Part shown: positions 46,616 to 59,971 of the stretch, in pieces
How the letters are laid out: each line of letters opens with the position of its first letter
How positions within the stretch are numbered: position 1 is the first letter of the stretch
Assembly: GCA_965242865.1 (NCBI GenBank)
Contig: CBDETK010000013.1
Location: 320,001-384,000, forward strand
Source of the DNA: Candidatus Latescibacterota bacterium
GTDB taxonomy: Bacteria; Latescibacterota; UBA2968; UBA8231
Length of the DNA stretch: 64,000 nt
Reading direction: 5' to 3'
Notes under the pieces: generated by a model
Database searches by the model: none
Told to the model about the DNA's origin: nothing
The model's input: only the letters and a program-made list of their open reading frames with translations
Translations under genes and position numbers: made by a program

Positions 46616-46616
46616 G

Positions 46617-47161: not shown

Positions 47162-49291
47162 CTAAGGCAACTTGGTCGTCTTTTTCGCTTCTATCTGTCC
47201 TTCGATTTCGACGCGATAGATATACACGCCCGCGGCCACCGCCTTGCCTGTCTCGTCGCGGCCATCCCATACAAACCGATGGCTGCCCGCCTGCAACGGC
47301 CTGTCCCACACCTGCCGCACCCGACGACCCAACACGTCGTACACGGTCAGCGACACGCTCGTCGCGTCCGTTGCCAAATCAAGCGGCAACACCACCGCCG
47401 GATTGAACGGATTGGGATAGCTGTCGCCCAGCCGATACTGCGCCGGGCGCGCTGCCGCCGACGTCAGCACCGCTGTTAGCGGATCGCTCAGCGAACTCTT
47501 GAGCAGATGCACACCGCCCAAGACCGGATCCAACACCACCAAATCGACAGCGCCGTCGCCATCGACATCGCCCGGCAGCACCTGTACCCCATCGCCCTCT
47601 AAGCGATGTGTTTCCACGTCTTCTGTTGGGTTCACGCCCCCGCCCCATTCGACGAACACCCCGAAGCCCGACGCACGATCGCCGCCGACAAACGCCCAGT
47701 CCTCAACCCCATCGGCATTTAAGTCGCCCACCACCACCGGCGAGCGCAAAAACAGCCGCTCATCATACAACACCTCCGTCTCTACAACGCCGCTGGGGCG
47801 GCTGCTCCGCACAACCAGCCCCTTGCGTTGTTCAGCACCGTCGTAGCGCAGGGCCGTCAGCAAGTCCACTTGCCCATCGCTATCAAAATCGCCCGTGCCC
47901 AAAAAAGTATATGAAGCGAGGCTCTGGTCGGCCCCGAGGGCAAATAGGGAGCCTGCCGCAAACTCACCTCCCAACCGAGACACAACCCAAGTATGGGCTT
48001 GGCCAACGATGGGCCCCCACAGCACGTCCAGCCTCCCATCGCCCGTAAGGTCGCCCACCTGAATGGGCACATGATCCTCTGGGAGAGCCGCCACCCGCGA
48101 AGCGGTCCATACGCCACCCGCGACATCCCAGACCTCGAAATAGGACTCGCCAGCCACGGAATAACCTTCTGCATTGTAGTTGACCTCAGAAACGTCCGTG
48201 AAAAAGAGTTCGACATCGCCATCGCCGTCCCAATCCGCTAAGTTTACGAACTCGCGGTTAGGTATCTCCGTCATCACCTCGATCGGGCGGTCCGGCCCCA
48301 TAGACCAAACCGCGACCCGACTGTTTATAGCCAACGCGAGCTCGTCGGTGCCATCGCCGGTTATATCGCCTAGATCCACCTTGAGATAAGCAAGCTCTCC
48401 CACCTGTTCAGTCCATGCGGTTTCAAAGACCCCCTCGCCGTCGTTGAGGGCCATGACCCAACCAGAGGAGGTGTACAAGTCCCGGGGAGGGAGGTGTTGC
48501 CAAACAGAGAAAAGGTCTAAATCGCCATCGCGGTCCAAGTCCGTCAATACACCCGCCCGCTCGTTTCCGAGAACCAACCGGTCGCCTGTGCCCGGCACCA
48601 TGGGATGGAAAGCGGGCGGCTCGAAGTGCCGACCCCTCTCAAAGCGAAAATAGTCGGCTTGGGGTGGCGGTAATTCTCCTTGTAGAATCTCCTCAACGCC
48701 GGTCAACTCGATCCAGTCGATCGCCAAGCGGCCCACCTTTTGCTCGGCCGCACGCGGCACTCCGATTGCGCCCTGATCCAAGTAAAAACTCAGCCGAATA
48801 TCCCGTACCGCACCGGCCCATATAATCTCATCGGGGTCCACAATGGGAATTTCTACTTCTTGCCACTCGGTCGTGTAAACAAAGTCGCGGGGGCCGGGGA
48901 GCAAAAAGCGTCGTTTAGGCCATTCAGGATCGTGCCCCGGCCGCGTGAGGTTGTGTTCATTGGTCCATTTGAAGTTGAAAAAACCGAATGTAGGGCTGTG
49001 ATGGACGGTGCGGAACCGCACTCGCACCCGGTCGAACAGAGCCGAATCGTAGTCCAAGGCGGGAGAAATCACTTCGACGCTCGGATTGTGGTCATCCGAG
49101 CGAAAGGTCTCGATCATCCACGCGCCATCTGCAATCACCCCAGACAACAGGTGGAACTCATGAAAGCCACCCGATGAGACGTCCTTTTTAGCAGCCCATC
49201 CTTGCGCCGTCTCTCCGTCGAAATCCCAAGTGACTGCCGCGGCCGGGCGACTCAACAGCACCATCCCTGCACAAATAGAAACGAGCAACAC
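47162..49291 (-). CDS. Secreted FG-GAP/VCBS-repeat protein with FlgD-type tail (paralog FG5, most divergent)
   Basis: Signal peptide, WDFDG..QGW...IDWIEL N-domain, DxDGDGDxDL repeats, YPNPFNP...WDGRD...GVYIY. Confidence 0.85.
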   Translation of the reverse strand: MLLVSICAGMVLLSRPAAAVTWDFDGETAQGWAAKKDVSSGGFHEFHLLSGVIADGAWMIETFRSDDHNPSVEVISPALDYDSALFDRVRVRFRTVHHSPTFGFFNFKWTNEHNLTRPGHDPEWPKRRFLLPGPRDFVYTTEWQEVEIPIVDPDEIIWAGAVRDIRLSFYLDQGAIGVPRAAEQKVGRLAIDWIELTGVEEILQGELPPPQADYFRFERGRHFEPPAFHPMVPGTGDRLVLGNERAGVLTDLDRDGDLDLFSVWQHLPPRDLYTSSGWVMALNDGEGVFETAWTEQVGELAYLKVDLGDITGDGTDELALAINSRVAVWSMGPDRPIEVMTEIPNREFVNLADWDGDGDVELFFTDVSEVNYNAEGYSVAGESYFEVWDVAGGVWTASRVAALPEDHVPIQVGDLTGDGRLDVLWGPIVGQAHTWVVSRLGGEFAAGSLFALGADQSLASYTFLGTGDFDSDGQVDLLTALRYDGAEQRKGLVVRSSRPSGVVETEVLYDERLFLRSPVVVGDLNADGVEDWAFVGGDRASGFGVFVEWGGGVNPTEDVETHRLEGDGVQVLPGDVDGDGAVDLVVLDPVLGGVHLLKSSLSDPLTAVLTSAAARPAQYRLGDSYPNPFNPAVVLPLDLATDATSVSLTVYDVLGRRVRQVWDRPLQAGSHRFVWDGRDETGKAVAAGVYIYRVEIEGQIEAKKTTKLP

Positions 49292-49376
49292 GACAGCACC
49301 TCCTATTCGTAACTTGAATTGATGGTGAAACCGGAATAAGGCGCGATGAGTTCTCCCGGCAACATCGACAAGCGAC

Positions 49377-51545
49377 CTAAGGCAGCTTGGTCGTCTTTTT
49401 CGCTTCCACCCGGCCTTCGATTTCGACGCGATAGATATACACGCCCGCGGCTACCGCCTTGCCTGCCTCGTCGCGCCCATCCCATACAAACCGATGGCTG
49501 CCCACCCCCAGCGGCCCCTCCCACACCTGCCGCACCCGACGACCCAGCACATCATGCACCCGCAGCGACACTTCCGTCGCGTCTGTCGCCAAATCGAGGG
49601 GCAGCACCACCGCCGGATTGAACGGGTTGGGATAGCTGTCGCCGAGCGAATGTTGCGCCGGGCGTGCTGCCGCCGACATCTGCACGGCTGTTGCAGTCGA
49701 AGCCAGCGAACTCTTGAGCAGATGGGCACCGCCCAAGATCGGATCCAACACCACCAAGTCGAGATCGCCATCGCCGTCCATGTCACCGGACAGCACGTAT
49801 CGCCCACTGCCGGTCAGCCGGTGCCGCTCGCCTTCTTGGGTCGGATTGACGCTCCCGCCCCATTCGACGAACACGCCAAACCCCGAAGCGCGGTCTCCGC
49901 CAATAAACACCCAGTCGTCCACCCTATCGGCGTTGAGATCGCGTATCAGCACCGGCGAGCGACGCAGCAGCCGATCATCATACAGCACTTCGGCTTCGAG
50001 GCGGTCTCCAGCGCCCTTGCGCTGCAAGACAAGCCCCTTGCTTCCTTCGAGTAGATCGGAGGTGAACTCAGTGAGTACATCCACCTGCCCATCGCCATCA
50101 AAATCGCCCACCCCTAACGGCTTCAACGCTTCACCGACCTCAAAGACCTCGCCCCGCTGAAACGCCTCGGGCGTGCTGTTTTGCAACCCCTCGTCCAAGG
50201 GAGACACAATCCACCCGCGCACCAGATCGCGAATCGGTCCCCAGAACACGGCTACGGTCCCATCGCCGGTAAAGTCGCCGAGGTGATAGGGCGTATATTT
50301 TTCGGAATACGCCACCTCCGCGGACGTCCACTCGCCCTGTTCAACCTCCCAGACCGCTAACGTGCTAAAAAACTCCGCCGTACCATTGAGCATATCGTCT
50401 CTTGTGCCATTATATGTAGCTCCCCCGACAAATAATTCGACCCGGCCATCGCCATCCCAATCGGCCACACTGTGAATCGAGCGGTCAATCTGCACGAGTA
50501 CCTCCACTTGGAGATCCGGGCCGATAGACCACACTTCAGTCGGCAGATCTTGGTTTGTTCCTATGGTTATCGCGATTTCGTCTTTACCATCGCCCGTTAA
50601 ATCAGCACCCACCGCCTCTAAGGACAACTGGGGGACGATTACACTTTCCATTCCCGCCTCGGTACTACTCCCCCTGATGGCCACTACTTTCTTAACAAGC
50701 CCCCGCTCCAAGGCCCCGCGCCCGTCATTGAGGGCCATCAGCCAGCCACTTTCAGGCTCAAGCTCCTGTTGCACTTTCGAGGGTGTGTCCCACAGACCAA
50801 AAAGGTCTAAGTCGCCATCGCCATCCAAGTCCGTCAACACGCCGCCCTTCCGCTCCCCTAGATACCCTCCTACATGAAATTCTTGCCCTGTGCCCGGCGC
50901 AATCGGATAGAACACCGGCGGCGCAAAAAGCCCGGCCCCATCAAAGCGAAAGTACTCTACCAGCGGCGGCGACCGTTCCCCCTGTAGTAGCTCTTCCGCG
51001 CCGGTCAACTCGATCCAGTCAATCTCAAACTTCTCCACTACCTTGGTATCCGAATCAGCCAGTATAAATTCTAGTATGATATTTTTTAACGGACCCTCCC
51101 AGCCGTCTCGATCCGCCACCGACAGCACCACTTCCTGCCACTCGGTGGTATAGACTACTTGTTTGAAAACGAGCGTCTCAAAAGAAGCTCTAAACCCTGA
51201 AGCGTTTTCCCACCCGAGCCCAAGCGTACCCTCCGTAGGGTCGTCATAGACGGTGCGGCAGCGAATTCGGACATAGTCGAACAGGCCCGAATCATACCCG
51301 ATAGCAGGAGAAACCAGTTCGCCTTGCGGCAGGGGGGACACAGCCTTAGTGGCCGAGGGATCGACCGTGATCTGCCATACGCTATCTTCGACCACCCAGG
51401 GAAAATGGTTAAATTCACGCGCACCCCGGATATGTTCTTTAGCGGACCACCCTTGCGTCGTCCCATCGTCGAACTCCCACCGAATCGCCACGGCGGGACC
51501 GCTCCACAGTACAAAGCCGACAACAACGGCGGCAAATTTCAGCAT
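49377..51545 (-). CDS. Secreted FG-GAP/FlgD protein (FG4, subtype A)
   Basis: Same architecture as FG5; central region near-identical to 56870..59059. Confidence 0.85.
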   Translation of the reverse strand: MLKFAAVVVGFVLWSGPAVAIRWEFDDGTTQGWSAKEHIRGAREFNHFPWVVEDSVWQITVDPSATKAVSPLPQGELVSPAIGYDSGLFDYVRIRCRTVYDDPTEGTLGLGWENASGFRASFETLVFKQVVYTTEWQEVVLSVADRDGWEGPLKNIILEFILADSDTKVVEKFEIDWIELTGAEELLQGERSPPLVEYFRFDGAGLFAPPVFYPIAPGTGQEFHVGGYLGERKGGVLTDLDGDGDLDLFGLWDTPSKVQQELEPESGWLMALNDGRGALERGLVKKVVAIRGSSTEAGMESVIVPQLSLEAVGADLTGDGKDEIAITIGTNQDLPTEVWSIGPDLQVEVLVQIDRSIHSVADWDGDGRVELFVGGATYNGTRDDMLNGTAEFFSTLAVWEVEQGEWTSAEVAYSEKYTPYHLGDFTGDGTVAVFWGPIRDLVRGWIVSPLDEGLQNSTPEAFQRGEVFEVGEALKPLGVGDFDGDGQVDVLTEFTSDLLEGSKGLVLQRKGAGDRLEAEVLYDDRLLRRSPVLIRDLNADRVDDWVFIGGDRASGFGVFVEWGGSVNPTQEGERHRLTGSGRYVLSGDMDGDGDLDLVVLDPILGGAHLLKSSLASTATAVQMSAAARPAQHSLGDSYPNPFNPAVVLPLDLATDATEVSLRVHDVLGRRVRQVWEGPLGVGSHRFVWDGRDEAGKAVAAGVYIYRVEIEGRVEAKKTTKLP

Positions 51546-51583
51546 GGCATCACCGATCCTTCCAGCAGATAGCGTACCCCGTC

Positions 51584-51627
51584 AAAGAAAGAGGCCGGCT
51601 TAATCGCGATCATTAAACCGGCCTCTT
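51584..51627 (-). terminator. Intrinsic terminator-like hairpin after peptide P3
   Basis: AAGAGGCCGG...CCGGCCTCTT followed by TCTTT on the minus strand. Confidence 0.7.
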
Positions 51628-51632
51628 ACGCC

Positions 51633-51908
51633 TTAGCAAACGCAGCAATACCAATGCGAACACTCGGCATTGCAGTTCGCATCCAGCCAACATGTCTTAC
51701 ATCTGCAATCCGGCTCGTTCGGGTTTGCCTCGCAACCGGAGCTGCCCTCCAGCACTGTCCATGGGGTGCCGTCGCAGGCTTTCGCTTCCTTGGCCCCGAG
51801 CAGGACGGCGATCCCCGTGAGGACGCTGATGACCCAACCGAGGGCCAACCCCTGCCGAGCCGGCACCAAGCCGCTCGACGATGCGAAAAACTCCCTCAAA
51901 TTCTGCAT
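51633..51908 (-). CDS. Cys-rich secreted peptide precursor P3 (44-aa leader + 47-aa core, 10 Cys)
   Basis: TAGGAG RBS; leader shared with two paralogs; core CDGTPWTVLEGSSGCEANPNEPDCRCKTCWLDANCNAECSHWYCCVC. Confidence 0.88.
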   Translation of the reverse strand: MQNLREFFASSSGLVPARQGLALGWVISVLTGIAVLLGAKEAKACDGTPWTVLEGSSGCEANPNEPDCRCKTCWLDANCNAECSHWYCCVC

Positions 51909-51998: not shown

Positions 51999-52000
51999 CC

Positions 52001-54151
52001 TTACGGTAGTTTCGTCGTCTTTTTCGCTTCGACTCGCCCGTCCATCTCGACGCGATAGATATACACGCCCGCGGCTACCGCCTTACCTGCCTCGTCGCGG
52101 CCATCCCATACAAACCGATGGCTGCCCGCCCCCAGCGGCCCCTCCCACACCCGACGCACCCGACGACCCAGCACGTCATGCACCCGCAGCGACACTTCCG
52201 TCGCGTCTGTCGCCAAATCGAGGGGCAGCACCACCGCCGGATTGAACGGATTGGGATAGCTGTCGCCCAGCCGGTATTGCGCCGGGCGTGCTGCCGCCGA
52301 CGTCTGCACGGCTGTCGCGGTCGAAGCCAGCGAACTCTTGAGGACATGCACGCCGCCCAAGATCGGATCCAACACCACCAAATCCTCATCGCCGTCGCCA
52401 TCCATATCCCCGGACAGCACGTGAGTCCCACTGCCCGCCAGCCGGTGCCGCTCGCCGTTTTGGGTCGGATTGACGCTTCCACCCCACTCGACGAACACCC
52501 CAAACCCCGAAGCGCGATCTCCGCCGATAAACACCCAGTCGTCCACCCCATCGCCGTTGAGATCGCGGACCAGCACGGGCGAGCGACGAAACAGCCGATC
52601 ATCATACAGCACCTCGGCTTCGAGGCGGTCGCCGGCCCCCTTGCGCTGCAAGGCCAACCCCTTGCTCCCTTCAATTGTGTCCCGTATGAACTCGGTGAGG
52701 AAATCCACCTGCCCATCGCCATCAAAATCGCCCACCCCTAAGAGTTGCCTCTTCTCCTCGAATGCAAAGTACTCGCTTTGCTGCAACCCCTCGCCCAAAG
52801 CCTGCACAATCCACCTGTTTGACCGACCGGCGATCGGCAACCACACCACGTCTAAGGCCCCGTCGCCGGTAACATCGCCGACCCGAATGGGCGCATAGTT
52901 TGGGTCCGCCGCGACCTCCTCGGCGGTCCACCCGCCCTGTGCTGCATCCCAGACCTCTAACGTGCTTCCCTCAAACGTAACGTCCCGCACAAATAATTCG
53001 ACCCGGCCGTCGCCATCCCAATCTGCGGCATCCGCGAGCCACCGATCCACGATCGGCACGAGCACCTCCACTTGCAGTTCCGGCCCGATAGACCACACTT
53101 CTGTTACCTGCCCCCCGTTGCTGGTAGAGAGCACGATTTCGTCTTGCCCATCGCCGGTCAAATCCGCCCCCATCACCGCTAAGACCACCCCGGGGATGCT
53201 CGTCGCGTCCGTGTCCGCATCCGTACTCGTCTCCCCGGTGGCTGTTACTTCCTCTACGTGCCTCCGTTTCAAGGCTCCGTGCCCATCGTTGAGGGCCATC
53301 AGCCAGCCAACTTTAGCCGCAAACGTCCTCGTCAGACGATACCTCCAGAGGGCGAACAGGTCTAAGTCGCCATCGCCATCCAAGTCCGTTAAGACGCCGA
53401 CCTCCTCTGTATCAAGGTCTCCCCCGATGCCCGGGGCAATCGGATAGAACGCCGGCGAGGCAAACAGGCCGAGCCCGTCCAAGCGAAAGTACTCTACAGG
53501 GGGTGGAGGCAGTTCCCCCTGTAAGAGCTCTTCCACGCCAGTCAACTCGATCCAGTCAACCTCAAACCACTCAATCTCAACCACATCCGCCGCCGACCAA
53601 GGGTTTACCTCTGTATCGAGAAAAAAACGGAGCCTAATATCTTTTAATAGCCCCTCCCATATCGTCTCGTCTTGACCGGCCAACGGCAGCACCAATTCCT
53701 GCCACTCAGTGGTATAGACTAGGTCTTGGACGGGGGTGGCAAACCGGCTGCTCGACAGCAGCGGGTCTTCTGGATCCGAACCGGAAGCCAAGGCGTTGTG
53801 CTCGTTGGTCCAAGCGACCGAAAAATGACCGACCGTAGGGTGGTCATGGACGGTGCGGCAGCGGATGCGAACCCGGTCAAACAGGTCCGAATTGTACCCG
53901 ATCATTGGGGAAATCAATTTGAAATCCGCCCGAGAATCACTCCCTCTAGTGCTGGAGGAATCGACCGCGATCCGCCACACGCCATCTTCGACCACACTTG
54001 GAAACAGGTTCGTTTCACGCGGTCCTCCCCCTCCTATAAGTCCTTCTGTGGCAGACCACCCTTGCGTCGTCCCGTCGTCGAACTCCCACCGGACCGCCGT
54101 GGCGGGATCGTCCCACAGCACCACGGCAACAGCGGCGAATAGCAGCATCAT
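52001..54151 (-). CDS. Secreted FG-GAP/FlgD protein (FG3, subtype B)
   Basis: Same architecture; central region near-identical to 54196..56334. Confidence 0.85.
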   Translation of the reverse strand: MMLLFAAVAVVLWDDPATAVRWEFDDGTTQGWSATEGLIGGGGPRETNLFPSVVEDGVWRIAVDSSSTRGSDSRADFKLISPMIGYNSDLFDRVRIRCRTVHDHPTVGHFSVAWTNEHNALASGSDPEDPLLSSSRFATPVQDLVYTTEWQELVLPLAGQDETIWEGLLKDIRLRFFLDTEVNPWSAADVVEIEWFEVDWIELTGVEELLQGELPPPPVEYFRLDGLGLFASPAFYPIAPGIGGDLDTEEVGVLTDLDGDGDLDLFALWRYRLTRTFAAKVGWLMALNDGHGALKRRHVEEVTATGETSTDADTDATSIPGVVLAVMGADLTGDGQDEIVLSTSNGGQVTEVWSIGPELQVEVLVPIVDRWLADAADWDGDGRVELFVRDVTFEGSTLEVWDAAQGGWTAEEVAADPNYAPIRVGDVTGDGALDVVWLPIAGRSNRWIVQALGEGLQQSEYFAFEEKRQLLGVGDFDGDGQVDFLTEFIRDTIEGSKGLALQRKGAGDRLEAEVLYDDRLFRRSPVLVRDLNGDGVDDWVFIGGDRASGFGVFVEWGGSVNPTQNGERHRLAGSGTHVLSGDMDGDGDEDLVVLDPILGGVHVLKSSLASTATAVQTSAAARPAQYRLGDSYPNPFNPAVVLPLDLATDATEVSLRVHDVLGRRVRRVWEGPLGAGSHRFVWDGRDEAGKAVAAGVYIYRVEMDGRVEAKKTTKLP

Positions 54152-54195
54152 AGCCTATCTCCTTTGCAACAGGCAAAAAAGAATGTCCTCTTACG

Positions 54196-56334
54196 TTACG
54201 GCAGTTTCGTCGTCTTTTTCGCTTCTACCCGGCCGTCCATCTCGACGCGATAGATATACACGCCCGCGGCCACCGCCTTACCTGCCTCGTCGCGGCCATC
54301 CCATACAAACCGATGGCTGCCTGCCCGCAACGGCCCCTGCCACATCTGACGCACCCGACGACCCAACACGTCATGTACCCGCAGCGAGACCGCCGCGTCC
54401 TCGGCCAAATCGAGGGGCAGCACCACCGCCGGATTGAACGGATTGGGATAGCTGTCGCCCAGCCGGTACTGCGCCGGGCGTGCTGCCGCCGACATCTGCA
54501 CGGCTGTCGCGGTCGAAGTCAGCGAACTCTTGAGGACATGCACGCCGCCCAAGATCGGATCCAACACCACCAAATCCTCATCGCCGTCGCCATCCATATC
54601 CCCGGACAGCACGTGAGTCCCACTGCCCGCCAGCCGGTGCCGCTCGCCGTCTTGGGTCGGATTGACACTTCCACCCCACTCGACGAACACCCCAAACCCC
54701 GAAGCGCGATCTCCGCCGATAAACACCCAGTCGTCCACCCCATCGCCGTTGAGATCGCGGACCAGCACGGGCGAGCGACGAAACAGCCGATCATCATACA
54801 GCACCTCGGCTTCGAGGCGGGCGCCGGCCCCCTTGCGCTGCAAGGCCAACCCCTTGCTCCCTTCGATTGTGTCCCGTATGAACTCGGTGAGGAAATCCAC
54901 CTGCCCATCGCCATCAAAATCGCCCACCCCTAAGAGTTGCCTCTTCTCCTCGAATGCAAAGTACTCGCTTTGCTGCAACCCCTCGCCCAAAGCCTGCACA
55001 ATCCACCTGTTTGACCGACCGGCGATCGGCACCCACACCACGTCTAAGGCCCCATCGCCGGTAATATCGCCAACCCGATAGGGTCCATAGTCTGGGTCTG
55101 CCGCGACCTCCTCGACGGTCCATTTGCCCTGTTCGACGTCCCAGACCTCTAACGTGCCGCCAGCAAACTCAACATCCTCTACAAATAATTCGACCCGGCC
55201 GTCGCCGTCCCAATCCGCGGCATCCGTGATCCATCGATCCGCGATCGGCACGAGCACCTCCACTTGTAGTTCCGGCCCGATAGACCACACTTCTGTTACC
55301 TCTACCGCACTGGTACTTGTAGAGAGCACGATTTCGTCTTGCCCATCGCCGGTCAAGTCCGCACCCATCACCGCTAAGACCACCCCGGAGATGCTCGTCG
55401 CACCCGTGTCCTCATCCGTACTCGTCTCCCCGGTGGCTGTTACTTCCTCTACGCGCCTCAGTTTCAAGGCCCCGTGCCCGTCATTGAGGGCCATCACCCA
55501 GCCCACGTTAGCCCTTTCAACACCGATACGACTGTCGTCATAGAGAGCGAACAGGTCTAAGTCGCCATCGCCCTCCAAGTCCGTTAAAACGCCCGCTCCT
55601 CCAAGTGCCTTCCCGATGCCTGGGGCAATCGGATAGAACACCGGTGGGTCAAACAGACCAACCCCACCAAAGCGCAAGTACTCCACCGGCGGCGGCGACC
55701 GTTCCCCCTGTAAGAGCTCTTCCACGCCGGTCAACTCGATCCAGTCGATCTCAAACCACGCCACCACCTCAGCCGCCGATGGGTCTTGCAGATCAAACTC
55801 TATATCCAGCATAAAACTGAGCTGAATATCTTTTAACAGACCCTCCCATATCGTCTCGTCTTGCCCGGCCAACGACAGCACCAATTCCTGCCACTCGGTG
55901 GTATAGACGATTGGTTGTACGCGGCTTTGAAATCGGCTTCCAGAGGGCCGATCTTCTGGATCCCAACCGGACGACAGGGCGTTGTGCTCGTTGGTCCACT
56001 CCATTGAAACATTACCGACCGTCGGGCGGTGATGAACAGTGCGGAACCGGATGCGGACCCGGTCGAACAGACCTGAATCGTACCCGATGGTCGAGGAAAT
56101 CACTTCGACACTTGGCGTGAAGTAATTGCCTTTGACGATGGCGGGATCGACCTCGATCCGCCACACGCCGTCTTCGACTTCGCCCGGAAACTGGTGCAAT
56201 TCACGCACCCCACCCCATACAAGCGCTTCTTTGGCGGACCACCCTTGCGTCGTCCCATCGTCAAACTCCCACCGAATCGCCGAGGCGGGACCGCTCCACA
56301 GCACCACGGCGGCAACGACAGCTAGCTTCAACAT
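54196..56334 (-). CDS. Secreted FG-GAP/FlgD protein (FG2, subtype B)
   Basis: Same architecture; GGAGG RBS. Confidence 0.85.
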   Translation of the reverse strand: MLKLAVVAAVVLWSGPASAIRWEFDDGTTQGWSAKEALVWGGVRELHQFPGEVEDGVWRIEVDPAIVKGNYFTPSVEVISSTIGYDSGLFDRVRIRFRTVHHRPTVGNVSMEWTNEHNALSSGWDPEDRPSGSRFQSRVQPIVYTTEWQELVLSLAGQDETIWEGLLKDIQLSFMLDIEFDLQDPSAAEVVAWFEIDWIELTGVEELLQGERSPPPVEYLRFGGVGLFDPPVFYPIAPGIGKALGGAGVLTDLEGDGDLDLFALYDDSRIGVERANVGWVMALNDGHGALKLRRVEEVTATGETSTDEDTGATSISGVVLAVMGADLTGDGQDEIVLSTSTSAVEVTEVWSIGPELQVEVLVPIADRWITDAADWDGDGRVELFVEDVEFAGGTLEVWDVEQGKWTVEEVAADPDYGPYRVGDITGDGALDVVWVPIAGRSNRWIVQALGEGLQQSEYFAFEEKRQLLGVGDFDGDGQVDFLTEFIRDTIEGSKGLALQRKGAGARLEAEVLYDDRLFRRSPVLVRDLNGDGVDDWVFIGGDRASGFGVFVEWGGSVNPTQDGERHRLAGSGTHVLSGDMDGDGDEDLVVLDPILGGVHVLKSSLTSTATAVQMSAAARPAQYRLGDSYPNPFNPAVVLPLDLAEDAAVSLRVHDVLGRRVRQMWQGPLRAGSHRFVWDGRDEAGKAVAAGVYIYRVEMDGRVEAKKTTKLP

Positions 56335-56390
56335 GCTATCACCTCCATAGAGACATTTTCAGAAGACTGAGCACGGTCCGTAAGTGCGAA

Positions 56391-56434
56391 GGAAAAGAGG
56401 GCCGGCTCAAGAATAGCTCCTGAGCCGGACCCTT
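56391..56434 (-). terminator. Terminator-like hairpin after peptide P2
   Basis: GGG.CCGGCTCA...TGAGCCGGCCC followed by TCTTTT on the minus strand. Confidence 0.65.
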
Positions 56435-56493
56435 CCCTTCAGCTTCTTGGACCGAGAAACAGCCCTACCAGCCAGCTAGCGGATGTCCTGATC

Positions 56494-56778
56494 TTAGGCG
56501 ACGCAGGAACAGCTTGTTACATTAATCACATTGCATTCGTCGTCCAGCCACTTGGTGCAGCACCGGAACGGCTTATCCGGATAAACTTCCGCGCACCCGG
56601 CATGCCAAGAACAATCTGTCCGTTGGCCCGGGCAGCTACCGTCACCGGCTTTCGCTTCCTTGGCCCCGAGCAGGACGGTGATCCCCGTGAGGACGCTGAT
56701 GACCCAGCCCAGTGCCAAACCCTGCCGAGCCGGTGCCAACCCGCTCGACGACGTGAAAAACTCCCGCAATTTCTGCAT
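56494..56778 (-). CDS. Cys-rich secreted peptide precursor P2 (44-aa leader + 50-aa core, 8 Cys)
   Basis: Core GDGSCPGQRTDCSWHAGCAEVYPDKPFRCCTKWLDDECNVINVTSCSCVA. Confidence 0.88.
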   Translation of the reverse strand: MQKLREFFTSSSGLAPARQGLALGWVISVLTGITVLLGAKEAKAGDGSCPGQRTDCSWHAGCAEVYPDKPFRCCTKWLDDECNVINVTSCSCVA

Positions 56779-56867
56779 GATTCTCGTCTCCTACGTTGCC
56801 CAGTACGCCAGCGGCCCGATACCGCGATGGCACTGGAAGTGAGGGTTGAAAAACAGCCGATACGAGT
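56647..56867 (-). repeat. Conserved 5'UTR+leader cassette, copy 2
   Basis: Starts 2 nt after the FG1 stop codon, matching the position of copy 3 after FG3. Confidence 0.9.
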
Positions 56868-56869
56868 CC

Positions 56870-59059
56870 TTACGGCAGCTTCGTCGTCTTCTTCGCTTCC
56901 ACCTGTCCGTCCATCTCGACGCGATAGATATACACCCCAGCGGCCACCGCCTTGCCTGTCTCGTCGCGGCCATCCCATACAAACCGATGGCTGCCTGCCC
57001 CCAGCGGCCCCTGCCACACCTGCCGCACCCGACGACCCAACACATCATGCACTCGCAACGAGACCGCCGCGTCCTCGGCCAAATCAAGAGGAATCACCAC
57101 CGCCGGATTAAACGGATTGGGATAGCTGTCGCCGAGCCGGTATTGCGCCGGGCGCACATCCGCCGACGTCTGCACGGCTGTCGCTGTTGAGGCCAGCGAA
57201 TTCTTGAGGACATGCACGCCGCCCAAGATCGGATCCAACACCACCAAATCGAGGTCGCCATCGCCATCCATATCCCCGGACAGCACGGTTCTCCCATTGC
57301 CCGCCAGCCGATGCCGCTCGCCTTCTTGGGTCGGATTGACAAGCCCCCCCCACTCGACGAACACGCCAAACCCCGAAGCGCGGTCTCCGCCAATAAACAC
57401 CCAATCGTCCACCCTATCGGCGTTGAGATCGCGTATCAGCACCGGCGAGCGACGCAGCAGCCGATCATCATACAGCACTTCGGCTTCGAGGCGGTCTCCA
57501 GCGCCCTTGCGCTGCAAGACAAGCCCCTTGCTTCCTTCGAGTAGATCGGAGGTGAACTCAGTGAGTACATCCACCTGCCCATCGCCATCAAAATCGCCCA
57601 CCCCTAACGGCTTCAACGCTTCACCGCCCTCAAAGACCTCGCTCCGCTTCAACGCTTCAGGCTCGCTGCTCTGCAACGCCTTGTCCAAGGGAGACACAAT
57701 CCACCCTTGCGCCAAATTGCGAATCGGTCCCCAGAACACGTCAAGAATCCCATTGCCGGTAAAGTCGCCGATGTGAACGGGCGCGTATTTTTCGGAATAC
57801 GCCACCTCCGAGGACATCCACCCGCCCGGTTTGAACTCCCAGACCGCTAACGTGCTAAAAAACTTCGCTGTACCCGCACGTGCTTCCTTGAGAGTGCCAT
57901 TATGTGTAGCTCCCCCGACAAATAATTCGATCCGGTCATCGCCATCCCAATCGGCCACACTATGAACCCAGCTATCGATCTGTACGAGCACCTCCACTTG
58001 GAGGTCCGGGCCGATAGACCACACTTCAGTTGCAGGCTCCCGGTTGCTTCTCGATAGGACGATTTCGGCTTGACCATCGCCGGTCAAATCGGCCCCAAGG
58101 ACTTGCAAGGCCACCCCTCGGGCGACTATTGCCACCTCCCCTCCTATGGCGGCTCCTTCCTCCTCCCCTGTGGCGGCTCCTTCCTCTATAACAGGCCCCC
58201 GTTCCAAGGCTCCACGCCCATCATTGAAGGCCATCAGCCAGCCCGTTTTCTCCTTACGAGACCCATGATCATTAGGTATTTTCATTTCCCAGAGACCGAA
58301 CAGGTCTAAATCGCCATCGCCATCCAAGTCCGTCAACACATTGCCCGCTCCCCCCCCTAGATACCTGCTTCGACCCCCTCGTGCTTCCCCGATGCCTTTG
58401 GCAATCGGATAGAACACCGGCGGCGCAAAAAGCCCCGTCCCCGCAAAGCGAAAGTACTGCTCTACCGGCGGCGGGGGGAGTTCCCCTTGGAGCACCTCTT
58501 CCACGCCGGTCAACTCGATCCAGTCGATCTCAAACGCCTCCACCACCTCGGTCGTCGAATCTAAATCCAGCATAAAACTGAACCGAAGGTTTCTCAACAG
58601 GCCCTCCCATTCGGCTTGACCCTCCAACGAGACCTCCACTTCCTGCCACGCGGTGGTATAGACTACTTGTTGGACGGGGGTGTCGTCTTGCAAAAAAACA
58701 TGACCTGAAGCGTTGTCCCATTGCACGTAAAAAGTGCCCTCGGTCGGGCGATCATGGACGGTGCGGAAGCGGAGGCGAACCCGGTCGAACAGACCCGAAT
58801 CATACCCGATGGTTGAAGAAACCACTTCGACACTCAGCCGGGAGGGGTCGAAACTGTTGGCAACGGCGGGATCGACCCGGATCCGCCACACGCCCTCGTC
58901 AACTTCGCCGGGAAACTGGTGAAATTCACGCGTACCCCCCGATACATCAGCTTCTTTGGCGGTCCACCCTTGGGTCGTCCCGTCGTCGAACTCCCACCGA
59001 ATCGCCGCGGCGGGGATGCTCCACAGCACAAGCCCTACAACAGCAGCAAACTTCAGCAT
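56870..59059 (-). CDS. Secreted FG-GAP/FlgD protein (FG1, subtype A)
   Basis: Start at MLKFAA after AAGGAG; same architecture. Confidence 0.85.
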   Translation of the reverse strand: MLKFAAVVGLVLWSIPAAAIRWEFDDGTTQGWTAKEADVSGGTREFHQFPGEVDEGVWRIRVDPAVANSFDPSRLSVEVVSSTIGYDSGLFDRVRLRFRTVHDRPTEGTFYVQWDNASGHVFLQDDTPVQQVVYTTAWQEVEVSLEGQAEWEGLLRNLRFSFMLDLDSTTEVVEAFEIDWIELTGVEEVLQGELPPPPVEQYFRFAGTGLFAPPVFYPIAKGIGEARGGRSRYLGGGAGNVLTDLDGDGDLDLFGLWEMKIPNDHGSRKEKTGWLMAFNDGRGALERGPVIEEGAATGEEEGAAIGGEVAIVARGVALQVLGADLTGDGQAEIVLSRSNREPATEVWSIGPDLQVEVLVQIDSWVHSVADWDGDDRIELFVGGATHNGTLKEARAGTAKFFSTLAVWEFKPGGWMSSEVAYSEKYAPVHIGDFTGNGILDVFWGPIRNLAQGWIVSPLDKALQSSEPEALKRSEVFEGGEALKPLGVGDFDGDGQVDVLTEFTSDLLEGSKGLVLQRKGAGDRLEAEVLYDDRLLRRSPVLIRDLNADRVDDWVFIGGDRASGFGVFVEWGGLVNPTQEGERHRLAGNGRTVLSGDMDGDGDLDLVVLDPILGGVHVLKNSLASTATAVQTSADVRPAQYRLGDSYPNPFNPAVVIPLDLAEDAAVSLRVHDVLGRRVRQVWQGPLGAGSHRFVWDGRDETGKAVAAGVYIYRVEMDGQVEAKKTTKLP

Positions 59060-59121
59060 GATAGCACAACTCCTTTCCAACAGGTAACATTCCGACAGAC
59101 TGCACCCTATCCATGAGTACG

Positions 59122-59167
59122 AAAGGGAAGGGGGGCCGGCTGAATCGCTACGATTAAACCGGCCCTT
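59122..59167 (-). terminator. Terminator-like hairpin after peptide P1
   Basis: GGGCCGG..AATCG-TAG-CGATT..CCGGCCC, then a pyrimidine tract with a weak U run. Confidence 0.55.
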
Positions 59168-59221
59168 ACACCTTAACAGGAGAAACGGTCCTACAGCCGC
59201 TAAGGTGGTCCCAGATATACT

Positions 59222-59503
59222 TCAAGCGCAGCAATAGGAAGGCTCGCACGATTCAACGCAATGTATGTCTAGCTGACAGTCCCGACATTCCTGCGCCGCG
59301 TCCCCGTTCGTGGCCCTGTCGCAACCTGCGCTGTACCCAAGGTTATCTGTCCACTCTTCCTCAAAGCAATATGCTTCGCCTTCCTTGGCCCCGAGCAGGA
59401 CGGTGATCCCCGTCAGGACGCTGATGACCCAGCCCAGTGCCAAACCCTGCCGAGCCGGCGCCAACCCGCTCGACGACGCGAAAAACTCCCGCAATTTCTG
59501 CAT
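59222..59503 (-). CDS. Cys-rich secreted peptide precursor P1 (44-aa leader + 49-aa core, 8 Cys)
   Basis: Core YCFEEEWTDNLGYSAGCDRATNGDAAQECRDCQLDIHCVESCEPSYCCA. Confidence 0.88.
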   Translation of the reverse strand: MQKLREFFASSSGLAPARQGLALGWVISVLTGITVLLGAKEGEAYCFEEEWTDNLGYSAGCDRATNGDAAQECRDCQLDIHCVESCEPSYCCA

Positions 59504-59592
59504 GATTCTCGTCTCCTAAGTTGCCCAGTACGCCGGCGGCCCGATACCGCTACGGCACTGGAAGTGAGGGTTGAAAAACAGCCGATACGAGT
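59372..59592 (-). repeat. Conserved 5'UTR+leader cassette, copy 1
   Basis: Nearly identical to the other two copies. Confidence 0.9.
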
Positions 59593-59642
59593 TCGCATCC
59601 CCTCCTTTCTTTTTCATCGGCCTTGCTTCTACGGATTATATA

Positions 59643-59658
59643 AGCAAATTGCGTGCCA
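59643..59658 (-). promoter_or_regulatory. sigma-54 (-24/-12) promoter
   Basis: TGGCACG-CAAT-TTGCT, full match to TGGCACG-N4-TTGCW, about 140 bp before the P1 ATG. Confidence 0.85.
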
Positions 59659-59698
59659 AAAAGCAGGGCATGCACAAAAAAATCCTTTGAGTTTGCCC

Positions 59699-59711
59699 TA
59701 AAGGATTGAAA
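59699..59711. promoter_or_regulatory. Candidate IHF site
   Basis: TAA-AGGA-TTGAAA, one mismatch to YAA-N4-TTGATW, in an AT-rich tract between promoter and repeats. Confidence 0.4.
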
Positions 59712-59778
59712 ATATGAGACTTAAAATAATGGACGCGGCTTCTTACGAGCGGCGGCCTCAGCCCGTGGCGCACGGCTT

Positions 59779-59854
59779 TACACGATTTTCCGTGGGTTCT
59801 ACACGATTTTCCGTGGATTGTACACGATTTTCCGTGGATTACACGACTTTCCGG
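59779..59854. repeat. Four direct repeats TACACGATTTTCCGTGG (spacing 21, 21, 19), candidate enhancer-binding sites
   Basis: Starts at 59779, 59800, 59821, 59840; dyad CACG-N6-CGTG in the first three, degenerate in the fourth. Confidence 0.75.
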
Positions 59855-59971
59855 GTTGCGCCGTCAAGGTAATCACCAGCAGATGCAAGGCCAGCGACAC
59901 CGCCAAGCAACTATGCAGGGTTCTATTTTTGCGGAGCGGAACTTTCCATGCCCGGCGCACCGGCTCACGTC

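Follow-up and report, generated by a model that had tools for sequence, protein, structure and literature searches.

A sigma-54-associated gene array of cysteine-rich miniprotein precursors and T9SS-type propeller proteins, and its candidate link to a prepilin-type peptidase

Introduction

The propeller of integrin alpha pairs with small disulfide-rich ligands, the disintegrins. Polymorphic toxin-immunity cassettes (CDI, Rhs) are arrays of pairs in which a conserved 5' part is followed by a variable part and an adjacent binder, and immunity proteins are usually small. Class III signals, as set out in one article (PMC4471445), consist of a hydrophilic leader of 6-26 aa that ends in a conserved Gly, followed by ~21 mainly hydrophobic residues, with a Glu at +5 that is often missing in archaea. 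The same article describes the Sulfolobus bindosome, in which sugar-binding surface proteins that are not pilins have class III signals and are processed by a prepilin-type peptidase (PMC4471445). For host-made cysteine-bridged peptides of sponges, a review gives a conserved leader and a variable Cys-rich core (PMC12426817).

Here, we analysed a locus of a sponge-associated bacterium in which small Cys-rich precursors alternate with large propeller proteins, a two-gene cassette present in many copies. On gene linkage and complex modelling, we give an even chance to the proposal that miniproteins matured by a Peptidase_A24 and by thioredoxin-fold proteins dock in cognate surface propellers and so form polymorphic ligand-receptor pairs.

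Organization and predicted regulation of the array

The window, that is, the whole stretch of DNA that was analysed (64 kb), contains eight ORFs on the minus strand: three encode peptides of 91-94 aa (P1-P3) and five encode FG-GAP paralogs of 709-736 aa (FG1-FG5), in the order P1-FG1-P2-FG2-FG3-P3-FG4-FG5 (Table 1). All eight agree in place and order with the first-pass annotation of this DNA. That annotation had placed the array at 47162-59860, but the cluster runs on past the window edge and comprises, in ~44 kb, 13 propeller genes, 7 peptides, five identical promoter/enhancer cassettes and a sigma-54 activator gene.

Table 1. Features of the array, with positions in the window
Feature	Position	Strand	Description
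Putative upstream activator sites	59777..59853	-	3.8 copies of a 21-bp repeat, core CACGGAAAATCGTG (Tandem Repeats Finder)
AT-rich spacer	59683..59720 (approximate)	-	imperfect inverted repeat CCTTTAGG...CAAAGG, between activator sites and promoter
Predicted sigma-54 -24/-12 promoter	59644..59658	-	TGGCACGCAATTTGC; sole perfect TGGCAC-N5-TTGC match in window
Conserved 5' UTR block	59504..59595	-	GGAG ribosome-binding site; repeated before P2 and P3 (DNA alignment)
P1 precursor	59222..59503	-	93 aa; 20-aa hydrophilic leader to Gly20, 19-aa hydrophobic tract, A-x-A, 49-aa core with 8 Cys
GC-rich hairpin after P1	59133..59165	-	no U-run; z = -2.76 (folding)
FG1	56870..59080	-	likely true start ATG at 59059, giving 729 aa
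P2 precursor	56494..56778	-	94 aa; 8 Cys in core; no promoter of its own; conserved UTR begins directly after FG1 stop codon
FG2	54196..56334	-	712 aa; architecture as FG1
FG3	52001..54151	-	716 aa; no peptide gene of its own
P3 precursor	51633..51908	-	91 aa; 10 Cys in core
FG4	49377..51545	-	722 aa (Pfam/NCBIfam profiles)
FG5	47162..49291	-	709 aa; most divergent paralog

The perfect sigma-54 site lies ~140 nt upstream of the P1 start, and the identical 15-mer is found at four further operon heads. Matches to TGGCAC-N5-TTGC with up to one mismatch numbered 8 in the window against 5.96 expected, and since this is near expectation only the perfect site and its context were counted. A triplet with 21-bp spacing, like that upstream of P1, precedes all five operon heads of the cluster, each of which has 3-4 repeat copies, and these repeats are likely to be binding sites of the sigma-54 activator. 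The AT-rich spacer element, also present in subfamily-2 promoters, is possibly a DNA-bending site. The activator carries Sigma54_activat (E 1.2e-69), Reg_prop, Y_Y_Y and HTH_8 domains, and rpoN is present in the genome that holds the window (G000). A -24 GG/-12 GC promoter, activator sites, an activator gene and rpoN together predict a sigma-54-dependent operon from the sequence, which bears out the sigma-54 association proposed in the first-pass annotation. A second cluster likewise holds an activator paralog and a perfect -24/-12 element, both its own, with a repeat that differs, and one promoter cassette precedes an FG gene without a peptide.

Copies of the 5' UTR block at the five operon heads and, internally, before P2 are 91-98% identical to one another; in any pair that involves P3 the identity is 74-78%. 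Its fold is unremarkable (z = -0.07), and no Rfam match was found for it. With the leader it forms a DNA repeat, ~90 nt of 5' UTR plus 132 nt of leader, that aligns nearly base for base among P1-P3. The GC-rich hairpin is also kept 3' of P2 and P3 and is possibly an attenuator or an mRNA-stabilising element.

Peptide precursors

The results showed that P1-P3 are identical at 41 of their 44 N-terminal positions and divergent thereafter, and a direct count gave 8, 8 and 10 Cys in the cores. The near-invariant 44-aa leader and the even Cys numbers reported at first reading therefore stand. The hydrophobic tract of P1 spans L21-A39 (LALGWVISVLTGITVLLGA), 19 residues. Among 163 distinct family sequences, the conserved leader positions are F7 (141/155), S10 (148/159), G13 (151/159), R18 (128/160), G20 (145/158, with Ala there in 8 more), G24 (140/160) and W25 (140/160). 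The Ala at -1 of A-x-A is invariant, being A44 in 28 sequences and A45 in 23 distant ones, and five Cys columns are invariant across 22 cores.

The comparison of leader and core by dN/dS, suggested in the first-pass annotation, gave 0.19-0.29 for the leader and 0.44-0.99 for the core. Within the genome, pS was 0.22 in the leader and 0.73 in the core, and the leader reached ~0.4 between genomes; by these values, the near-invariance of the leader inside this genome is largely concerted evolution. The cores sort into types with orthologs in other species, the P2 type at L032 and L017 in other genomes and P3 at L015 and L019. Because core types are common to several species, the cores are not freely hypervariable: of the family first described, the conserved N-terminal module and the Cys-framework core hold, but the free hypervariability does not.

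P1-P3 matched 0 Pfam and 0 NCBIfam families. The P1 core alone was modelled at pLDDT 92.9, and this model matched 0 PDB folds at E <= 0.001; its best, non-significant fold neighbour was the bacteriocin laterosporulin (E 2.9, TM 0.47). The best Atlas score was 0.81, under the 0.9 mark. A metallothionein or other described Cys-rich family, considered at the outset, found no curated-family or solved-fold match in Pfam, NCBIfam or PDB folds, and the peptide family was not recognised in the literature searched either, in keeping with the early statement that it is not recognised as a described system. Natural fusions exist in which the leader is followed by 1-3 Cys modules and a T9SS sorting domain (200-344 aa); this C-terminal domain is absent from P1-P3 and carried only by the fused relatives.

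Propeller proteins

FG1 comprises a signal peptide, a CBM-like beta-sandwich (20-186), an FG-GAP beta-propeller (~215-620) and a T9SS type A sorting domain (654-729). In Pfam, FG-GAP_3 and FlgD_ig are over cut-off in each of the five FG proteins; the FG-GAP_3 scores are 40.8-62.6 bits against a cut-off of 26.9, and the D-x-D-x-D-G loops are readable. The C-terminal part had at first been called FlgD. However, all five proteins pass TIGR04183 (T9SS type A sorting) with scores of 24.4-29.5 against a cut-off of 23, whereas the equivalogs of FlgD, the flagellar hook cap, stay far below theirs (31-35 bits, cut-offs of 230 or more). By these profile scores, the part first called FlgD is a sorting domain of T9SS type A, with only an Ig-like fold in common with FlgD. 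T9SS machinery is encoded in the genome (PorU 624 bits, SprA 482 bits).

The AF2 model of FG1 reached a pLDDT of only 73 and a pTM of 0.72. Foldseek matched this model to integrin alpha-V, PorZ and CBM4/22/28, the best structural match being integrin alpha-V (4um8; E 5e-8, TM 0.31/0.36, 12% sequence identity).

Predicted peptide-propeller complex and its distribution

In the predicted complex of the P1 core with FG1, the core sits between the CBM-like domain and the propeller. The ipSAE was 0.86, 0.82 and 0.85 in three runs against 0.01 for the best of three controls, with a partner pLDDT of at least 84 and contact agreement of at least 84%. The mark for the complex score separates solved complexes (58 of 80 reach it) from mismatched pairs (2 of 110 do), a calibration that holds only roughly here, because the score came from our own unpaired alignments of 29 and 28 rows. 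Predicted contacts involve 40 of the 49 P1 core residues and 62 FG residues. These contact residues are 0.30 identical among 20 pairs versus 0.64 elsewhere; they are surface loops, which vary more than a fold core anyway. The least conserved 20-residue segments of 13 FG paralogs (221-240, 301-320 and 381-400) hold 5, 9 and 9 contact residues, and the contact sites of the model fall where the propeller family varies most. The predicted contact residues of FG3 are closest to those of FG2 (0.60 identity), and those of FG5 are 0.13-0.25 identical to the other paralogs'. The identity of the cores correlates with that of the FG proteins (rho 0.55 and 0.68, reached by 0 of 2000 Mantel permutations), a co-divergence that is expected from linkage alone and is no proof of co-evolution; the identity of the leaders does not (rho -0.02 and 0.14).

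In related genomes, an FG gene starts at most 300 bp downstream of the peptide in 36 of 44 short peptide genes, a count that, as in all our genome comparisons, is drawn from kin and not independent. Of 24 genomes, 19 have the FG N-domain, and the 16 in which the peptide was found are all among them. Three genomes (G010, G011 and G021) have FG genes but no peptide match, and G000 has 34 FG genes against 13 peptides. The excess of FG genes, the genomes with FG genes alone and the promoter cassette with a peptide-less FG gene indicate that FG proteins can exist without a partner. In other genera, 7 of 11 loci with leader homologs have no FG gene in the flanks examined, indicating that the FG pairing is lineage-specific. 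The first-pass annotation had named leader homologs without FG neighbours as speaking against its peptide-propeller partnership. Such homologs were found in part of the loci, and the partnership is supported by the predicted complex (ipSAE 0.85 versus 0.01) and by the downstream FG genes but is not general. At L078, a distant locus, a run of three tandem peptides precedes an ORF that, judged by eye, begins like an FtsX-type permease.

These data also bear on the role of the pair. It is unlikely, in our estimate, that the miniprotein is an antimicrobial of bacteriocin- or defensin-like type, with the FG protein at the surface to sequester or carry it, and the extra FG proteins as orphan protectors against the peptides of neighbours. 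The arrays, with their conserved N-terminal module, abruptly variable C-terminal part and adjacent variable binder, would suit such a role, as would a peptide that the model encloses nearly on all sides (40 of 49 residues), FG genes that outnumber peptides, FG-only operons, a core dN/dS of up to 0.99 and the tandem peptides of L078 ahead of the permease-like ORF. Laterosporulin as the best fold neighbour points the same way; however, that match (E 2.9, TM 0.47) is not significant, toxicity is unsupported, and it would be unusual for an immunity protein to be a T9SS cargo of 720 aa that carries a CBM-like domain. The antimicrobial reading has the same binding step as the ligand-receptor reading and differs from it only in biological role.

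Linkage to a prepilin-type peptidase

We compared the occurrence of the peptide family and Peptidase_A24 in 168 genomes of the phylum: 31 hold both, 4 the peptide only, 1 A24 only and 132 neither, so that both genes occur in 31 of the 36 genomes that hold either. A peptide match lies within 5 kb of 40 of the 45 full-length A24 homolog genes, and within 500 bp of 17. G000 has a single PF01478 match (27.1 bits, cut-off 26.5), at a locus that reads activator, A24, a 221-aa protein, two AhpC/TSA-Redoxin proteins (CSAC and CPYC), peptide and five FG genes. This only A24 gene of G000 is 2.8 Mb away from the window's cluster, which has none. In five of the seven other-genus loci without an FG-family ORF (L067, L068, L075, L076 and L078), an A24 protein of 353-408 aa adjoins the peptide; four of these five proteins pass the Pfam cut-off (27.5-40.9 bits) and one scores 25.3. 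The candidate catalytic residues D33 and D93 are invariant in 6 of 6 A24 homologs; in the Peptidase_A24 family, the second Asp belongs to a G-x-G-D-like motif. The likeness to archaeal EppA is weak (20 bits, cut-off 450). On these gene neighbourhoods, the A24 link is the general one and the propeller pairing is lineage-specific.

The pilus-assembly ATPase T2SSE (PF00437) was over cut-off in 0 of the 10 genomes that carry the system, and the same search found matches in 13 of 14 control genomes. In G000, the matches to T2SSE, T2SSF and N_methyl are confined to a 41-kb contig (C1), and the 5.6-Mb contig has none; the T2SS-like gene set on C1 would need a prepilin peptidase. Set beside class III signals, the leader ends in Gly and is followed by a hydrophobic tract, a candidate dedicated peptidase gene is present and linked (cleavage is predicted), Trp (140/160) stands at +5 instead of Glu, a class I-type site is present, and the T2SSE plus T2SSF pair of a type IV filament was not found with the system. 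The leader is probably more than a plain Sec signal and matches a prepilin-type (class III) signal in its layout; the miniprotein is probably trimmed by a pilin-type protease, though no pilus machinery was found. The plain Sec signal of the first-pass annotation thus probably gives way to a prepilin-like layout and a linkage to Peptidase_A24 and thioredoxin-fold genes. Gly13, Gly20 and Gly24 are all conserved, and each could be the A24 cleavage site.

We consider it quite improbable that the 44-aa module is nevertheless an ordinary Sec signal with a single signal peptidase I cut at A-x-A, the free peptide as the product and A24 as a bystander. The n-region F..S.SG....R.G is kept in distant members, signal peptides are not usually so conserved, and the leader dN/dS is 0.19-0.29. 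Furthermore, A24 co-occurs in 31 of 36 genomes and is adjacent in 40 of 45 cases, and the 10 genomes have no pilus ATPase that A24 could otherwise serve. On the other side stand the invariant -1 Ala (A44 in 28 and A45 in 23 distant sequences), a hydrophobic tract whose length suits a signal peptide, the T9SS-domain fusions, which need release from the inner membrane, and the absence of an A24 gene from the window's own cluster, all of which a Sec signal would explain.

Less probable still is a periplasmic escort, in which the miniprotein stays anchored in the inner membrane after the A24 cut, is not cut at A-x-A and plugs the ligand site of the FG protein until T9SS export. A Gly-ended leader, hydrophobic helix and small head make up a pilin-like architecture, no filament machinery was found that would extract the peptide from the membrane, the modelled core covers the CBM-like domain and the propeller face, and the peptide has no T9SS domain, all consistent with an escort. 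Against it, A-x-A after the helix is invariant, and natural fusions export the same Cys modules with a T9SS sorting domain. Matching of escort and client would fit the data but is not required of a chaperone.

We regard it as very improbable that the peptides build an unrecognised type IV filament as its small pilins: the class III-like signal, the linked dedicated A24 peptidase and a mature size of ~73 aa, within the range of small pilins, are offset by T2SSE over cut-off in 0 of 10 system genomes (matches in 13 of 14 controls), Trp instead of Glu at +5 (140/160), A-x-A following the helix, and a core model with no pilin head and no PDB match. A RiPP precursor whose core is modified beyond disulfides, suggested, as the first-pass annotation had it, by the conserved leader and variable Cys-rich core, can be given hardly any weight, because no linked core-modifying enzyme (radical-SAM, YcaO, lanthipeptide or similar) was found among the scanned neighbours, which covered part of the ORFs of the 44-kb cluster, the leader carries a membrane-spanning tract, and the only linked enzymes are the peptidase and thioredoxin-fold proteins.

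Proposed mechanism

Returning to the ligand-receptor reading, the partners would be a precursor of ~92 aa and an exported protein of ~720 aa with a signal peptide, a CBM-like domain, an integrin-alpha-like propeller and a T9SS domain. The activator, with its Reg_prop/Y_Y_Y sensor and no membrane segment, would bind the 21-bp repeats and fire the -24/-12 promoters. The precursor would then enter the inner membrane through a leader that ends in R-x-G and the 19 hydrophobic residues behind it, and the divergent Peptidase_A24 would take the leader off on the cytoplasmic side, with Gly20 as the likeliest last residue of the released part. Judging from gene linkage, membrane-anchored thioredoxin-fold proteins may be what makes or rearranges the 3-5 disulfides in the periplasmic core. 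According to the modelling, the core would dock in its cognate FG protein with the CBM-like domain on one side and the propeller face on the other, and the FG protein would reach the surface through T9SS. Since the miniprotein has no sorting domain, it probably rides along with the FG protein after release at A-x-A; the natural fusions of leader, Cys modules and T9SS domain lend this co-export indirect support.

The pairs differ most at the predicted interface, and homogenisation within a genome affects leader and UTR; in our reading, this is a polymorphic ligand-receptor system of the cell surface. The likeliest role would be recognition, either between cells (self/non-self, or a peptide and a neutralising binder) or of host material in the sponge. 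We advance more tentatively, and with distinctly less confidence, that the locus represents an undescribed sorting and recognition pathway, in which A24 peptidases without type IV filament machinery mature a polymorphic family of miniproteins for cognate T9SS propeller receptors. If true, sponge symbionts would have in it a diversifying cell-surface ligand-receptor code. In a bolder extension, the 20-aa leader fragment released by A24 into the cytoplasm might be a signal read by the membrane-less propeller sensor of the activator, which would close a feedback loop.

Comparison with described systems

The precursors resemble type IV prepilins in a 20-aa leader to Gly with Arg at -3 (128/160), ~19-21 hydrophobic residues and a small disulfide-bonded head, and the linked A24 gene keeps both Asp motifs, like the prepilin peptidases PilD, FlaK and EppA. 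They differ in having Trp, not Glu, at +5 and an A-x-A after the helix, which class III signals lack. Further differences lie in the head model, whose fold is not that of a pilin, in the length of the peptidase (353-408 aa) and in the assembly ATPase, for which 10 genomes gave no match over cut-off. As in the Sulfolobus bindosome, the proteins with class III-like signals would be surface proteins and not pilus subunits; however, the bindosome is archaeal, consists of large solute-binding proteins and needs a type IV filament machinery (Bas) for surface localisation, whereas the heads here are Cys-rich, of 50 aa and from a diderm bacterium in which no such machinery was found.

The FG proteins are like T9SS cargo with a type A domain (PorZ, PDB 5m11) in their signal peptide, beta-propeller, beta-sandwich and TIGR04183 domain, and PorU and SprA are in the genome; the peptides, in contrast, have no sorting domain except in fused relatives. 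The literature searched held no report of T9SS cargo with a separately encoded small subunit, and no description of a miniprotein paired with an exported propeller. The integrin alpha/disintegrin pair has a parallel in the best match of the FG model (4um8) and in a Cys-rich protein predicted on the propeller face. Unlike integrin, the FG protein has no beta subunit and is predicted to clamp the peptide with a CBM-like domain as well, and the match is of low TM (0.31/0.36) and 12% identity.

With CDI and Rhs, the locus has in common arrays of pairs, a conserved 5' part homogenised by recombination, an abrupt variable part and a co-diverging neighbour binder. It differs in having no known toxin domain or activity, a secreted multidomain binder of 720 aa and, as the variable part, a disulfide-rich domain of 50 aa. 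Conotoxin and defensin precursors, barrettides and asteropsins likewise combine a conserved N-terminal module with a core that varies around a constant Cys framework. Those peptides, however, are eukaryotic and Sec/ER-routed, and no sequence or fold relation to them was found; in the present family, an A24 peptidase goes with the N-terminal module and a cognate propeller with the core.

A proposed sigma-54-controlled cluster of peptide and propeller genes

The array consists of three short ORFs (P1-P3, precursors of Cys-rich peptides) and five long ORFs (FG1-FG5, propeller proteins of 709-736 aa), arranged in the order P1-FG1-P2-FG2-FG3-P3-FG4-FG5. Alignment of P1-P3 showed that 41 of the first 44 residues (the leader) are identical, with divergence thereafter in the core. 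The repeat was also evident in the DNA: about 90 nt of 5' UTR and the leader are near base-for-base identical among the peptide genes, and for P2 and P3 the conserved UTR block begins directly after the stop codon of the upstream FG gene. A GC-rich hairpin lies 3' of each peptide gene. P1-P3 matched no Pfam or NCBIfam family, and an Rfam scan of 46500-60000 returned nothing meaningful. A riboswitch or leader RNA in the 5' UTR was also considered and dropped, because its folding was not unusual (z = -0.07).

In public contig sets, summed word depth in the leader/UTR bins (59369-59572) was about 16-20-fold that in the P1 core (59114-59368); in sequencing run X1 the depths were 2079-2818 versus 130. 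This fits a multi-copy module beside a single-copy core. The stretch 56300-59900 was present in runs labelled sponge metagenome, and the runs listed for it included no RNA run. In runs X1 and X3, exact contigs covered the P1 core, and no core cover was found among the contigs of X5 and X7.

Coordinates of the array and associated features (window positions, or positions on the 5.6-Mb contig C13 where prefixed; the window spans C13:320001-384000)
Feature	Coordinates	Strand	Description
Array	47162-59860	-	three short and five long ORFs
P1	59222-59503	-	peptide ORF, 8 Cys in core
P2	56494-56778	-	peptide ORF, 8 Cys in core
P3	51633-51908	-	peptide ORF, 10 Cys in core
Sigma-54 promoter	59644-59658	-	perfect TGGCAC-N5-TTGC
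DUF4159 remnant	59861-59965	-	about 35 codons of gene 5' end
Signalling set, in order	39447-46985	-	FHA protein, MotA/ExbB-like protein, FHA protein, PP2C phosphatase
Signalling set, continued	39447-46985	-	Ser/Thr kinase with ankyrin repeats, family-less 292-aa protein, second Ser/Thr kinase
Activator paralog	C13:390344-393571		sigma-54 activator with Reg_prop/Y_Y_Y sensor
Activator paralog	C13:3149146-3152358		sigma-54 activator with Reg_prop/Y_Y_Y sensor
Intact DUF4159 gene	C13:393593-394930		sequence like that of the remnant
Intact DUF4159 gene	C13:496197-537		sequence like that of the remnant
Orphan peptide gene (L008)	C13:2271170-2271475	-	degenerate -24 element (TGGTAC), C-terminal extension

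The promoter element in the table is the single perfect match within the window, and 3.8 copies of a 21-bp repeat lie 120-200 bp upstream of it. The whole genome (G000) contains 50 perfect matches, five of which are an identical 15-mer, each accompanied by 3-4 copies of CACGGAAAATCGTG at 21-bp spacing. These five identical cassettes head five operons at 367-411 kb of C13, which together form a 44-kb cluster of 13 FG genes and 7 peptide genes; the array described in the first-pass annotation was thus confirmed and extended. The cluster also encodes a 1075-aa protein with Reg_prop repeats, Y_Y_Y, Sigma54_activat (E 1.2e-69) and a Fis-type HTH, and rpoN is present in the genome. With perfect -24/-12 elements and 21-bp repeats at five operon heads, an activator gene and rpoN, the proposed sigma-54 control stands. 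A sixth cassette at about 493.5-493.6 kb has an FG gene directly downstream, without a peptide gene.

Reg_prop/Y_Y_Y modules are known from periplasmic glycan sensors of Bacteroides hybrid two-component systems. Two paralogous activators share the sensor, the 1075-aa protein (C13:390344-393571) and that at C13:3149146-3152358; in both it would be cytoplasmic, because neither a signal peptide nor a membrane segment was seen in them.

Just upstream of the enhancer repeats in the window lies a remnant of a DUF4159 gene, reading ..RRAWKVPLRKNRTLHSCLAVSLALHLLVI.., and the same remnant precedes the cassette at about 493.5 kb. Intact DUF4159 genes recur in both clusters. The remnant marks the edge of a duplicated promoter cassette.

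Several other genes adjoin the operons. The signalling gene set directly downstream of FG5 is absent at the other operons. Operons 4 and 5 are separated (window 59972-63606, minus strand, and C13:383618-384544) by genes for a family-2 glycosyltransferase, a protein with a transglutaminase core, a product of 502 aa that lacks a Pfam family, and a TPR protein. The transglutaminase-like protein ends in ..CRLVWECI, a tail also present on an 830-aa protein of the second cluster (C13:3168573-3171065).

Propeller proteins and predicted docking of the P1 core

FG1-FG5 contain FG-GAP repeats and a C-terminal domain that Pfam assigns to FlgD_ig and the first-pass annotation had read as FlgD. NCBIfam identified this domain, above its cut-off, as a type IX secretion system (T9SS) type A sorting domain, and the NCBIfam FlgD equivalogs scored far under their cut-offs, so that a FlgD or flagellar function was rejected. 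PorU and SprA are encoded in the genome. In the AF2 model of FG1 (pLDDT 73, pTM 0.72), a signal peptide precedes a beta-sandwich (20-186) and a propeller (about 215-620), and the sorting domain comes last. Foldseek matched the model to integrin alpha-V (E 5e-8), the Umb lectin propeller and PorZ, and its N-terminal domain to CBM4/22/28.

The P1 core modelled alone reached a pLDDT of 92.9. Against the PDB, Foldseek found no fold at E <= 0.001 for it, the best match being laterosporulin (E 2.9), and in the ESM Atlas the highest score, 0.81, was to clusters without names, which is a lead only. We predicted one complex, that of the cognate pair (FG1 residues 20-625 with P1 residues 45-93), using our own alignments. 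The results gave ipSAE values of 0.86, 0.82 and 0.85, compared with 0.01 for the best of three controls, with a partner pLDDT of at least 84 and a contact agreement of at least 84%. Of 80 solved complexes, 58 reached the mark for a complex, as did 2 of 110 mismatched pairs; these counts are only rough with own alignments. In the prediction, 40 of the 49 core residues contact 62 FG1 residues, 19 in the CBM-like domain and 43 in the propeller.

Among 20 peptide-FG pairs of subfamily 1 (the type of the 44-kb cluster), identity was 0.30 at the predicted contacts, which are loops and would vary more than a fold interior in any case, versus 0.64 elsewhere in residues 20-400. Core identity correlated with FG identity at contact positions (rho 0.55) and at the others (rho 0.68), values reached by 0 of 2000 permutations; leader identity showed no correlation (rho -0.02 and 0.14). 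Co-divergence of core and FG is expected from linkage alone. Across the 13 paralogs of the cluster, the least conserved 20-residue segments were those rich in predicted contacts, with one exception, the variable segment 461-480, which has zero contact residues.

The peptide family and its pairing with FG genes

The leader occurs in 12-13 genes of G000. Of these, 7 belong to the cluster, one is an orphan at 2.27 Mb (locus L008), and the rest form subfamily 2 at 3.155-3.194 Mb, with a leader of about 28% overall identity. No FG gene lies within 1.35 kb of the orphan, and in locus L035 its ortholog has an FG gene 73 bp downstream; the orphan is probably a decaying copy. In one subfamily-2 member, the leader is joined to two Cys modules plus a T9SS sorting domain, and like fusions with 1-3 Cys modules occur in other genomes. 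Such fusions to a sorting domain speak for release of the Cys modules from the inner membrane.

Searched against 1.84 billion representative proteins, the peptide profile gave 86 matches of 35-283 aa. Because none exceeded 283 aa, we rejected the reading of the peptide as a detached FG domain from a split gene. The related loci are labelled as Candidatus Latescibacterota MAGs, one being labelled Gemmatimonadota. The proposal that leader homologs are followed by FG genes held in the first set of loci, where an FG start lay within 300 bp downstream of 36 of 44 distinct short peptide genes; together with the P1-FG1 model, this supports the partnership proposed earlier. Two more had a second peptide gene in between, one had an FG gene 1.1 kb away, and five had none in the available flank (one a frameshifted copy overlapping an FG start, two on a 2.9-kb contig). 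In 24 same-genus genomes, the peptide profile was found in 16 and the FG N-domain in 19, all 16 within the 19; G000 alone has 34 FG N-domain matches. Neither occurred in 16 genomes from other families of the class.

A profile for distant members found the family in 35 of 168 genomes of the phylum, all within three families of one class. At loci from other genera the proposal held only in part: an FG-family ORF was absent from 7 of 11 (3.2 kb examined), one had an FG gene downstream and three were fusions to the sorting domain. These results show that FG pairing of the peptide family is lineage-specific. At three loci from two other genera (L067:426-1445, L068:1937-2827 and L076:175-1143), the peptide gene is followed by one for a larger protein. 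The products (296-339 aa) begin with a signal-like stretch, share a C-terminal ..SWGRIKASL.. ending, belong to no Pfam or NCBIfam family and may be alternative partners of the miniprotein.

Evolution of leader and core

Within G000, the leader showed pS 0.22 and pN 0.05, and the core pS 0.73 (saturated) and pN 0.52. Between genomes, within a core type, dN/dS was 0.19-0.29 for the leader (pS about 0.4) versus 0.44-0.99 for the core (pS 0.19-0.51). The cores have five invariant Cys columns and two frameworks. The free hypervariability suggested at first needs correction, as old core types are shared between species. Because cores were more alike between species than within the genome and leaders the opposite, the UTR-plus-leader module bears the signature of concerted evolution (gene conversion) atop old core types.

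Linkage to a prepilin-type peptidase

At five of the seven FG-less loci, the neighbour of the peptide was a 353-408-aa Peptidase_A24 (A24, prepilin-type) protein scoring 25.3-40.9 bits (cut-off 26.5), and at a sixth, two thioredoxin-fold genes adjoin the peptide. At locus L078 (1501-2487 and 2582-3228), an A24 gene is followed by three tandem peptide genes and then an ORF whose N-terminus, judged by eye, resembles an FtsX/MacB-type ABC permease. The sole PF01478 match of G000 (C13:3152636-3153775) lies in a series that runs activator paralog, A24, 221-aa protein, two AhpC/TSA-Redoxin proteins (membrane-anchored, with CxxC motifs), subfamily-2 peptide and five FG genes; this cluster has its own perfect -24/-12 element with a different upstream repeat.

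Across the 168 genomes, an A24 homolog was found in 32: peptide and A24 occurred together in 31, peptide only in 4, A24 only in 1, and neither in 132. Of 45 full-length homolog genes outside G000, a peptide match lay within 5 kb of 40 and within 500 bp of 17. All six homologs compared keep both candidate catalytic Asp residues. This A24 subfamily spans 55 clusters, whose names go no further than 'A24 family peptidase' or 'prepilin peptidase'.

Two A24 paralog types occur, singly or together, in same-genus genomes (G001-G146). Type one, 73-92% identical to that of G000, is located 1.9 kb upstream of a subfamily-2 peptide, and type two, about 40% identical to it, lies beside subfamily-1 clusters. 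As G000 has type one only, either its subfamily-1 peptides would depend on an A24 acting in trans, or a second A24 gene would be unassembled.

No T2SSE ATPase scored over the Pfam cut-off in 10 system-bearing genomes (five other-genus and five closed or nearly closed same-genus genomes), and the identical search was positive in 13 of 14 control genomes. In G000, T2SSE, T2SSF and N-methyl pilin matches occurred only on the 41-kb contig C1, together at 26570-29874. This contig may be a binning contaminant from another organism, as the assembly has an estimated 6.8% contamination.

Proposed mechanism and implications

The best-supported mechanism, on sequence and modelling, would be one in which sigma-54-controlled miniproteins undergo maturation by A24 and thioredoxin-fold proteins and then dock into cognate T9SS propellers. 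Their role may be cell-cell recognition, a peptide with its neutralising binder, or host binding. The 34 propeller genes, each about 2.2 kb, and 13 peptides of the system take up more than 1% of the 6-Mb genome of G000, which comes from an uncultured sponge symbiont lineage.

The implications all rest on genomics and modelling. If the scheme is true, bacterial prepilin-type aspartyl peptidases serve outside type IV filaments, and the annotation of A24 genes in pilus-less genomes changes. T9SS cargo could then be two-chain complexes in which the small partner lacks its own sorting signal, giving a new surface route for disulfide-rich miniproteins. The pairs would diversify exactly at the predicted contact sites, and how dense symbiont populations distinguish self, neighbours and host would become testable with recombinant proteins. 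The cores would form a natural library of small disulfide scaffolds that model with confidence (pLDDT 92.9), each with a matched binder.

Comparison with known systems

Among the families, structures and literature searched, none described a system of this kind. Searches combining Latescibacteria with sponge cysteine-rich proteins, FG-GAP or type IX secretion found no paper, and those on T9SS with cysteine-rich or FG-GAP proteins, T9SS piggyback and non-pilin prepilin-peptidase substrates found nothing relevant. Term searches of a paper on sponge Latescibacterota (PMC12993501) turned up none of FG-GAP, secretion systems, T9SS, integrin and sigma-54.

The closest comparison is with class III signals, which, according to PMC4471445, consist of a hydrophilic leader of 6-26 aa with Gly as its last residue and a tract of about 21 hydrophobic residues; Glu5 is usual, and no class I cleavage site comes after the tract. 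Across 163 distinct family sequences, F7, S10, S12, G13, R18, G20, L21, G24 and W25 were conserved, and position 20 was G in 145 and A in 8 of 158. With the conserved Gly20 motif and the A24 linkage, the leader is probably more than the plain signal peptide of the first-pass annotation. The family leader agrees with class III signals in its hydrophilic, Gly-ended leader and hydrophobic tract, but differs in having Trp in place of Glu5 and an invariant A-x-A after the tract. Because Glu5 is missing and A-x-A is present, the peptides were not classed as type IV pilins. The leader would instead be a module that is class III-like at its cytoplasmic end and possibly also cut at its periplasmic end.
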